DNA of 64,000 nucleotides from a marine bacterium B5-7 (GTDB lineage: Bacteria > Pseudomonadota > Gammaproteobacteria > BQJM01), in assembly GCA_021604705.1 (NCBI GenBank), contig BQJM01000004.1, positions 502 through 64,501 on the forward strand. The letters run 5' to 3'. Each line of letters begins with the position of its first letter. The first letter of the stretch is position 1. The notes beneath the pieces are model-generated. The model searched no databases. It was not told where the DNA came from and saw nothing but the letters and a program-made list of their open reading frames with translations. Positions 18,102 through 19,916 of this stretch are shown here, piece by piece. A program made the translations under genes and the position numbers.

Positions 18102-19354
18102 TGGCTGAATTCAATAATTACACCTTAAACTTTGGTCCACAACATCCATCTGCACATGGTGTGCTGCGCTTAATTTTAGAGATGGAAGGTGAAACCATCC
18201 TGCGCGCTGATCCACATATTGGCTTGTTGCACCGCGGCACTGAAAAATTAGCGGAAACAAAACCGTACAATCAGAATATTGGTTACATGGACCGTTTAGA
18301 TTATGTGTCCATGATGTGTAACGAACATGCTTATGTGATGGCGATTGAAAAACTTTGTCAGCTAGAAGTGCCGATTCGCGCACAGTATATTCGCGTGATG
18401 TTTGATGAGATTACACGGATTCTAAATCACTTACTCTGGATTGGCGCACATGCTTTAGATATTGGCGCCATGACCGTATTTTTGTATGCGTTTCGTGAGC
18501 GCGAAGATTTAATGGATTGTTATGAAGCGGTATCTGGTGCGCGCATGCATGCGACGTATTATCGTCCTGGCGGCGTGTATCGCGATTTACCAAATAAAAT
18601 GCCGCAATATAAAAATAATACACAACGCAGCAAAAAAGAATTAGATGCCATGAATGCCGATCGCCAAGGTGGTTTGTTAGATTTCATGGAAGCATTCACT
18701 GAACGTTTCCCTGGTTGTATCGACGAATATGAAACCTTGTTAACCGACAACCGTATTTGGAAGCAACGTACCGTAGACATCGGTATTGTGTCACCTGAGC
18801 GTGCGATTCAGTTAGGTTTTACTGGTCCGATGTTGCGTGGCTCAGGAGTTGCTTGGGATTTGCGTAAGAAACAACCCTACGAAGTGTATGATAAAATGGA
18901 TTTCGATATTCCAGTTGGTACCAATGGCGATTGTTATGATCGTTATGTGGTGCGCGTGGAAGAAATGCGCCAATCAAATCGTATTGTAAAGCAATGCATT
19001 GACTGGTTACGCAAAAATCCTGGTCCAGTGATTGCGGATGACCATAAAATTGCGCCGCCTAGTCGTGCAGCAATGAAAGAAGACATGGAATCCATGATTC
19101 ATCACTTTAAGTTATTCACTGAAGGTTACATTGTCCCTAAAGGCGAAACTTATGCGGCGGTGGAGCATCCTAAAGGGGAATTTGGTATTCATCTTGTCTC
19201 TGATGGTGCGAACAAGCCTTACCGTTTGAAAATTCGTGCGCCGGGTTTCGTGCATATTTCTGCATTGGATGAAATGGTGCGCGGTCATATGCTGGCAGAT
19301 GTTGTCGCCATTATTGGTACACAGGATATTGTGTTTGGGGAGGTAGATCGATGA
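18101..19354 (+). CDS. nuoD: NADH-quinone oxidoreductase subunit D
   Basis: 417 aa. 49-kDa subunit ([15 protein letters not shown]..., ...RAPGFVHIS). Confidence 0.96.
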
Positions 19355-19362
19355 GCATTTAC

Positions 19363-19416
19363 TGTCACCCCGGGCTTGATCCGGGGTCTCCGTCTAGCAC
19401 CTCAGTACTATTTGGA
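19363..19416. repeat. Half element (variant module A + spacer) inserted at the nuoD/nuoE junction
   Basis: tgtcaccccgggcttgatccggggtctccgtctagcacctcagtactatttggag. Flanked by a 10-bp direct repeat gatcgatgag at 19347-19356 and 19423-19432. Confidence 0.85.
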
Positions 19417-19427
19417 GAAGTCGATCG

Positions 19428-19916
19428 ATGAGTCAAGAAACGTTTATTCTATCCGACGCAGTCAAAGCGAAAATCGACCATTGGTTGAAGAAATTTCCGC
19501 AGGACCAACGTCGCTCAGCGTTAATTCCGGCATTACATATTTTGCAAGATGAACAAAATTGGTTGTCTACACCGATGATGGATGCAGTGGCAGCATACCT
19601 AGGTGTAACATCCATGGAAGTTTATGAAGTCGCAAGCTTCTATTCCATGTTTGACTTAGAGCCCATGGGACGACATAAAATCAAATTGTGCGGCAGTATT
19701 TCTTGCGACTTGTGTGGCGCACATAAAATTGGAAACCACCTCAAGCAAAAACTGGGCGTGGATTACGGCGAAACAACGACGGATGGTAAGTTTACCTTAC
19801 AGGAAGTGGAGTGCTTAGGCGCCTGTCGTGGTGGGCCTGTCATGTTATTAGATAAAGTGTATTACGAACATCTGACGACAAAAGAAGTCGATGAGATTTT
19901 GGATAGGTGTGAATGA
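19428..19916 (+). CDS. nuoE: NADH-quinone oxidoreductase subunit E
   Basis: 162 aa. Thioredoxin-like [2Fe-2S] cysteines (CGSISCDLCGA, CLGACRGGP). Confidence 0.95.
   Translation: MSQETFILSDAVKAKIDHWLKKFPQDQRRSALIPALHILQDEQNWLSTPMMDAVAAYLGVTSMEVYEVASFYSMFDLEPMGRHKIKLCGSISCDLCGAHKIGNHLKQKLGVDYGETTTDGKFTLQEVECLGACRGGPVMLLDKVYYEHLTTKEVDEILDRCE

Follow-up and report, generated by a model that had tools for sequence, protein, structure and literature searches.

Marine bacterium B5-7 is an unclassified gammaproteobacterium represented by a metagenome-assembled genome. We have analysed a stretch of 64,000 nucleotides from it, here called the window, with emphasis on the junction between the genes nuoD and nuoE, where part of a hairpin element is bracketed by two copies of a direct repeat. 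An earlier note on this DNA had read the repeat as a target-site duplication left by a transposing element. The features of the junction, and the full copies of the element with which it was compared, are collected in Table 1.

Table 1. Genes, repeat copies and hairpin elements discussed in the text, with positions in the window.
Feature	Position	Strand	Remarks
nuoD, 417 aa	18101..19354	+	ends DIVFGEVDR, stop TGA 19352-19354; PF00346 (Complex1_49kDa) 1e-121; protein 100% identical to NuoD of marine bacterium B5-7
nuoE, 162 aa	19428..19916	+	starts MSQETF; Pfam 2Fe-2S_thioredx 4e-53
Junction repeat copy 1, TTTGGGGAGGTAGATCGATGAG	19334..19355	+	last six nuoD codons and stop
Candidate translational relay, 26-codon mini-ORF	19351..19431	+	from the copy-1 ATG through the hairpin to the copy-2 TGA
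Filler CATTTAC, 7 nt	19356..19362	+	neither repeat nor element; resembles nothing else
Hairpin unit TGTCACCCCGGGCTTGATCCGGGGTCTCC, 29 nt	19363..19391	+	fits the Ssn-related motif (SRM) pattern
Central spacer of the 80-bp element, GTCTAGCACCTCAGTACTA, ~20 nt	19392..19410	+	by comparison with full copies at 2162, 16515 and 19926
Junction repeat copy 2, TTTGGAGAAGTCGATCGATGAG	19411..19432	+	FGEVDR and stop; nuoE ATG 19428, TGA 19429-19431
Full 80-bp element, tRNA-Leu/nuoA	16515..16594	+	no flanking repeat; fold -35.4 kcal/mol, z -10.5
Full 80-bp element, nuoE/nuoF	19926..20005	+	no flanking repeat apart from ATGA
2.4 head-to-tail copies of the 80-bp element, nuoG/nuoH	23678..23880	+	no flanking repeat

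The repeat at the nuoD/nuoE junction

The window contains the decamer GATCGATGAG exactly two times, with one copy at 19346-19355 and the other at 19423-19432, against an expectation of 0.06. The stop codon of nuoD lies inside the first copy and the start codon of nuoE inside the second, in agreement with the ends of the open reading frames (ORFs) and with the Pfam identities of the two proteins, and both genes are thereby kept intact, as the earlier note had said. It also had the pair of decamers and the position of the second one right, but placed the first one base too far downstream, at 19347-19356. The duplication that it described is there, but is longer than the 10 bp it was given: the match extends without gaps to 22 bp, of which 19 are identical between the copies. 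By our own arithmetic a stretch of 64 kb should contain about 6 pairs of exact 10-mers lying within 100 bp of each other, so the decamer alone is not rare, and the significance of the repeat rests on its position, its 22-bp extension and its coding content.

The second copy reads TTT GGA GAA GTC GAT CGA TGA, that is FGEVDR followed by a stop, with the TGA lying over the nuoE ATG, and FGEVDR is the conserved C-terminus of NuoD. Its codons mark copy 2 as a remnant of the nuoD 3' end, because a random 21-mer would encode these six residues and a stop in that frame, the phase of an overlap, with a probability of about 1e-10 (own arithmetic). The first copy has the ancestral Shine-Dalgarno sequence, GGAGG (19339-19343), and its ATG of the ancestral nuoE type (19351-19353) forms an ATGA overlap; in the second copy the Shine-Dalgarno sequence is a weaker GGAG (19414-19417). 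Each of the three differences between the copies is in a synonymous third position (GGG/GGA, GAG/GAA and GTA/GTC). The middle codon is GAG in all relatives, so copy 2 appears to be the altered one; codon usage was uninformative on which copy is native.

The same junction in relatives

The four closest relatives, with 83-88% identity over the C-terminal 120 residues of NuoD, all have a one-base overlap of nuoD and nuoE, TAATG or TGATG, and an overlap of 1 or 4 nt is present in 10 of 13 proteobacterial loci. One locus, L003, has the ATGA overlap; its junction is GAGATCGATCGATGAGTCAGA (...GATCGATGAGTCAGA) and its NuoE begins MSQT. When the insert and one repeat copy are taken out of the window, the predicted core is GATCGATGAGTCA, which is the same as in L003, and GGNGAG is retained at the matching codons in relatives. 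From this comparison of sequences we conclude that nuoD and nuoE overlapped ancestrally and that the duplication of the stop/start junction is real. The earlier note had proposed such an overlap and is borne out by the relatives that lack the insert, in which we observed overlaps and no long non-overlapping spacer.

Two other assemblies of marine bacterium B5-7 (L046 and L171) carry the identical filled site, which makes three assemblies in all. L171 (Logan DRR328265), an independent short-read assembly, corresponds to positions 16514-19952 of the window and is 100% identical to it. The ends of its contig fall at or inside two of the elements, which means that these repeats break assemblies. 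A search of the genome collection gave no match above 54%.

What lies between the two copies

The hairpin unit downstream of the filler is predicted to fold as DNA at -7.6 kcal/mol (z -2.5), with the stem CCCCGGG/CCGGGG and a loop. It is followed by the centre of the 80-bp element, and the right hairpin of about 24 nt is missing. The partial element thus spans 49-56 bp, from 19363 to about 19411-19418. This is the half element of roughly 55 bp in the earlier note. It does not abut copy 1, since the 7 nt CATTTAC stand between them; upstream of the other element copies the corresponding 7 nt have a different sequence. At the right joint, GGAGA (19414-19418) is also the first 5 nt of the right arm of the element, which amounts to microhomology. 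The exact breakpoint is ambiguous, because the joint T..GGAG(A) fits the right arm and the nuoD codons alike; the coding content favours reading 19411 onward as derived from nuoD. We looked for a promoter or terminator in the spacer and found nothing beyond the shuffle expectation.

Identity of the element family

The Ssn-related motif (SRM) generalises the NTS/dRS3 hairpin repeat of Neisseria and is tied to GIY-YIG nucleases acting on single-stranded DNA (ssDNA) (Chenal et al. 2025, PMC11893778). Its pattern, HGTCWYN(0-2)YYVSBRHN(0-5)WNVSBRGN(0-2)RNCYNB, has 18 matches in the window, as against 0.14 on average and at most 2 in dinucleotide-type shuffles, and the 29-nt unit fits exactly (H-GTC-W-Y, stem, loop, stem, RNCYNB). 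By its motif the unit thus belongs to the Ssn-associated hairpin repeats of NTS/dRS3 type, which it resembles also in being an oriented hairpin, abundant (18 per 64 kb) and placed between genes. The 5' GTCAY and 3' TCTCC of the unit do not vary from copy to copy, while the stems covary. More than 120 metagenome contigs, ranging from 29 to 70% in GC content, contain exact variants of the unit, many of them as inverted pairs like those of the window, and in three contigs (L095, L137 and L078) they flank a small GIY-YIG gene (PF01541), which is the Ssn architecture. Unlike the published repeats, most units here are in inverted pairs of 80 or 90 bp with different stems in the two arms, and the ssn gene (a small GIY-YIG gene, cd10448, which as a rule has the motif on its flanks) was not seen, with 64 kb of this genome scanned.

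The GIY-YIG gene of L137 (1-1089) and L095 (100-560) encodes about 95 aa and has the window's unit variants CACCCCGGGCTTGACCCGGGGTCTCC and TTCCGGCGAAAGCCGGAATCTC on both sides. A search seeded with the L137 protein gave thousands of homologues of about 95 aa, and among the 120 matches listed none was named for marine bacterium B5-7. No GIY-YIG, RAYT or other transposase gene was found among the scanned ORFs of the window. Rfam gave two tRNAs only, and no RNA family over the element.

The full elements have inverted 29-nt arms, i.e. terminal inverted repeats. In these arms (2162-2241, 19926-20005, 23678-23757 and others) the stems are CCCGCG/CGCGGG on the left and TTCCGGC/GCCGGAA on the right; both share the GTCAT foot, the CTTGA loop and ATCTCC, and these three are constant across metagenomes while the stems covary. 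The published SRM pattern fits the left arm only. This arm is on the + strand in 15 of the 18 SRM-pattern units and in every full 80- or 90-bp element. The GC skew is positive over the window, and if the + strand is the leading strand, as the skew suggests, the SRM arm would sit on the lagging-strand template. Such a placement is a prediction of a single-strand mechanism; most genes are on the + strand as well, and the direction of transcription may be the cause. A 90-bp variant of the element, at 26263-26352 and 61980-62069, has another centre (GATAGTACTAGCAAGTACGCTAGCA), and its two copies are 93% identical.

Flanking repeats at other copies

We scored the best ungapped match between the 45 nt to the left and the 45 nt to the right of each of the 14 element blocks in the window, with mismatched flank pairs as the null. 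The nuoD/nuoE block scored 13, above all 496 null comparisons, and the other 13 blocks scored 4-7, where the null averaged 5.3. A few null comparisons reached 9-12; in each of them copy 2 matches gene ends that encode xEVD, those of dnaK and nuoE, which is a matter of coding convergence. This convergence, together with the expectation of a few exact 10-mer pairs within 100 bp in any 64 kb, is what could be said for a chance resemblance between two unrelated 10-mers. Against it are the extension to 19/22, the score of 13 and a second copy that encodes the full NuoD tail and stop in the overlap phase of the relatives, and chance is, on the coding content of copy 2, effectively refuted.

Among 64 paired elements from metagenome contigs there was no excess of flanking repeats. 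At nuoE/F, nuoG/H, nuoI/J and nuoJ/K nothing beyond ATGA is shared between the flanks, and the idea of decayed junction duplications at nuoE/F and nuoG/H was dropped, as ATGA can be explained by function alone. Flanking duplication is not a property of the element family. The part of the earlier note that took the junction as direct evidence of elements that transpose and generate flanking duplications is thus not supported, as the 13 other window blocks and the 64 metagenomic pairs all lie at background.

[quoted passage not shown] The direct repeat brackets the insert, the inverted arms of the full elements resemble MITE terminal repeats, and QMITE2 of Coxiella is a MITE with 7-11-nt repeats (PMC5896051). 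The repeat-free blocks, however, include tandem copies that are 99% identical and must be recent; the enzymes that go with the motif are ssDNA nucleases, which cut a single strand on its upstream side and do not make staggered double-strand cuts (PMC11893778); and none of the scanned window ORFs was a transposase. With a 7-nt gap on the left and a truncation on the right, neither repeat meets a true end of the element. The 22 bp are also, to our knowledge, longer than the target duplications of bacterial transposases. Because of the lack of repeats elsewhere, the 7-nt offset, the truncation and the length of the repeat, we consider this explanation quite unlikely.

Hairpin elements have opened the nuo operon (16515-26352) at six sites: tRNA-Leu/nuoA, D/E, E/F, G/H, I/J and J/K. 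In L047, the nearest of the relatives that have a long contig, the operon is compact: the genes overlap at D/E, E/F and G/H, and at I/J and J/K they are separated by short spacers (14 and 23 bp). The tandem copies at nuoG/nuoH have a period of 87 with the 7-nt spacer AGAGGGC, and yield a spurious ORF of 70 codons (23691-23903). A second repeat, CTGTCATCCCGCGCGG(A/C)TGTGTGTCTGCCGGGGGAATA, is found at 25453-25498 and 26213-26258 (91% identical), directly 3' of the nuoI and nuoJ stops and before ordinary units. In L047, whose NuoE is 68% identical, a different but related family of palindromic repeats surrounds tRNA-Leu (2740-3200), and one of its units, TGTCATCCCGGAAAGCGCGATAGCGGTTATCCGGGATCC, occupies the tRNA-Leu/nuoA spacer, where the window has the element 16515-16594.

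A candidate relay between nuoD and nuoE

The initiation region of the old nuoE is intact in copy 1, with GGAGG, a spacing of 7 nt and the ATG at 19351. This ATG now opens the mini-ORF of Table 1: the nuoD TGA overlaps its start (19351-19353), and its own TGA overlaps the nuoE ATG (19428-19430). Two of the three frames of the insert are open, and the mini-ORF is still open in strain L046. In the predicted minimum-free-energy and centroid structures the new nuoE Shine-Dalgarno sequence (GGAGA) pairs with TCTCC of the element. The mini-ORF may relay a coupling by termination and reinitiation from nuoD to nuoE across the insert, and its translation could both melt the structure and bring ribosomes to nuoE. 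A frameshifted NuoD isoform reading through the element was dropped by eye, as no slippery site was seen.

Discussion

The reading that we favour, with a probability of roughly 55%, is a one-off illegitimate insertion accompanied by a duplication of the junction, and kept since it spares both genes. The ancestral junction would have been ...TTTGGGGAGGTAGATCGATGAGTCAAG..., with an ATGA shared by the nuoD stop TGA and the nuoE start. One irregular insertion would then have brought in 56 bp of foreign DNA, consisting of 7 nt of unrelated flank, the left hairpin and the centre of an 80-bp SRM/NTS-type element, and the same event would have duplicated the 22-bp junction. It was probably mediated by microhomology, through template switching or illegitimate or homology-facilitated recombination, and not by a staggered transposase cut. 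The product could have been retained as one of the few harmless ways to interrupt an overlapping junction, with copy 1 preserving the conserved C-terminus and stop of NuoD, and copy 2 a Shine-Dalgarno sequence and ATG for nuoE. The mini-ORF would be a by-product, in which the old nuoE start leads to the TGA over the real nuoE ATG. We think of an irregular event filtered by selection, and not of a transposase signature, because the repeat is 22 bp long, is offset by 7 nt, borders an element truncated at microhomology and has no counterpart elsewhere. On this reading the empty allele should be GGTAGATCGATGAGTCAAGAAAC and the donor locus CATTTACTGTCACCCCGGGCTTGATCC, of which the latter would fit a copy-in by template switching.

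Several observations weigh against this reading. The reconstructed empty junction GGNGARGTNGAYCGATGAGTCARGARAC had 0 matches in metagenome contigs in a degenerate search, and searches with NuoE and NuoD gave nothing between 68/85% and 99-100% identity, so that the insertion is deduced from distant relatives only. The window holds no donor for CATTTAC and the element, and the only similar copy (16515) has another left flank. A simple dead-copy model does not predict synonymous differences only (p ~0.01 for a freely drifting dead copy, ~0.05 if changes in the constrained copy 1 are allowed). A mini-ORF of this kind is expected by chance about one time in five, none of the other invaded junctions has one, and the RNA fold of the whole region does not exceed that of shuffles in stability (z 0.2).

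The synonymous pattern could be chance, the result of constraint on the mini-ORF, or a sign that alleles of two lineages were joined by homology-facilitated illegitimate recombination. In the last case a homeologous nuoD end would have been recombined in along with the element, the nuoD side being joined through homology and the opposite side illegitimately. Two constrained alleles would differ in just this way within FGEVDR, the microhomology at the right joint fits, and SRM/NTS repeats have been linked to the processing of transforming DNA in Neisseria (PMC11893778). Three differences are however too few for a firm test, there is no second lineage to compare with, and the question of how the junction first opened is merely shifted to the donor. 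We give such a recombination rather little credence.

It could also be that the duplication came first, as a spontaneous tandem duplication of the junction that made a neutral spacer, into which the element was inserted later without a duplication of its own. A tandem duplication of 22 bp is a common type of spontaneous mutation, the family normally comes without a flanking repeat, and its members sit in intergenic spacers throughout the nuo operon. But a perfect tandem duplication leaves no spacer, so that the element would have had to hit the joint precisely; neither the filler of 7 nt nor the truncation of the right arm is accounted for, and no relative examined shows a duplicated junction free of the element. 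This order of events seems unlikely to us.

A more far-reaching version of the insertion would make the repeat a footprint of how SRM repeats spread, in which an ssDNA fragment, released by a cut some bases upstream of the motif, would be copied or patched into a new site by template switching and leave a target duplication of variable length, and would make the mini-ORF a functional relay. The 7-nt foreign leader would then come from the cut upstream of the motif, this copy would be young enough to have kept its duplication, and the relay would explain the synonymous-only change of copy 2. Taken together we find this combination distinctly doubtful. The paper on the SRM (PMC11893778) leaves open how these repeats multiply and describes no insertion footprints.

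Returning to the one-off insertion, the locus has likenesses to several known systems. With the REP and REPIN sequences, which are mobilised by RAYT transposases (IS200/IS605-like), the elements share the inverted hairpin pair round a short spacer, the occurrence as singlets and clusters, the high copy number, the intergenic position, the uniform strand orientation and the absence of target duplication. The units here lack the conserved GTAG-type tetranucleotide, no RAYT gene was among the scanned window ORFs, and the unit fits the Ssn motif. REPIN families are lineage-specific, and the unit of the window is by contrast spread over contigs whose GC content runs from 29 to 70%. Bacterial MITEs that have target-site duplications, such as QMITE2 and the Correia element of Neisseria (TA), are likewise small, non-coding and palindromic and lie near or between genes, and the one copy bracketed by a repeat is a further likeness; unlike in these, the other tested copies here have no flanking repeats, and the 22-bp repeat does not abut the ends. 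QMITEs are 150-400 bp long (PMC5896051), the element here 80 bp. An identity with QMITE1 or QMITE2 was rejected, as this is not a Coxiella and the elements are unlike in both size and features.

The palindromic elements of Rickettsia are inserted in frame in genes. The likeness is in a palindromic repeat that is open in a reading frame and tolerated in the region of an essential gene in a host-associated bacterium, but the element here is part of neither protein; it lies between nuoD and nuoE and is read only by the separate mini-ORF. Rickettsia is also among the SRM-rich genera (PMC11893778). Overlapping stop and start codons of the kind that go with translational coupling in operons (ATGA, TAATG) are present at nuoD/nuoE in the relatives, and both copies here keep ATGA with a short ORF linking them; a relay by way of a 26-codon ORF made by an insertion is our hypothesis, and we found no documented case.

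The spread of the NTS/dRS3/SRM hairpin repeats has not been established (PMC11893778), and a copy that shows a clear insertion footprint within an essential operon is of use in that respect. The case also shows a way in which two overlapping, translationally coupled genes can be separated with both of them kept. It is on the present evidence a single anecdote, which speaks against a regular target duplication and not for it.

Some minor features of the window lie outside the nuo operon. At 49999-50565 there is a pair of ORFs, a small nucleotidyltransferase and a substrate-binding protein, that resembles a toxin-antitoxin system, and in the region 55539-56203 another nucleotidyltransferase ORF (55539-55829) stands beside an ORF without Pfam match. 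The ORF at 8123-9202 has weak leucine-rich-repeat and ankyrin-repeat matches, below the curated cut-offs of Pfam, which if real would be typical of host-associated bacteria.

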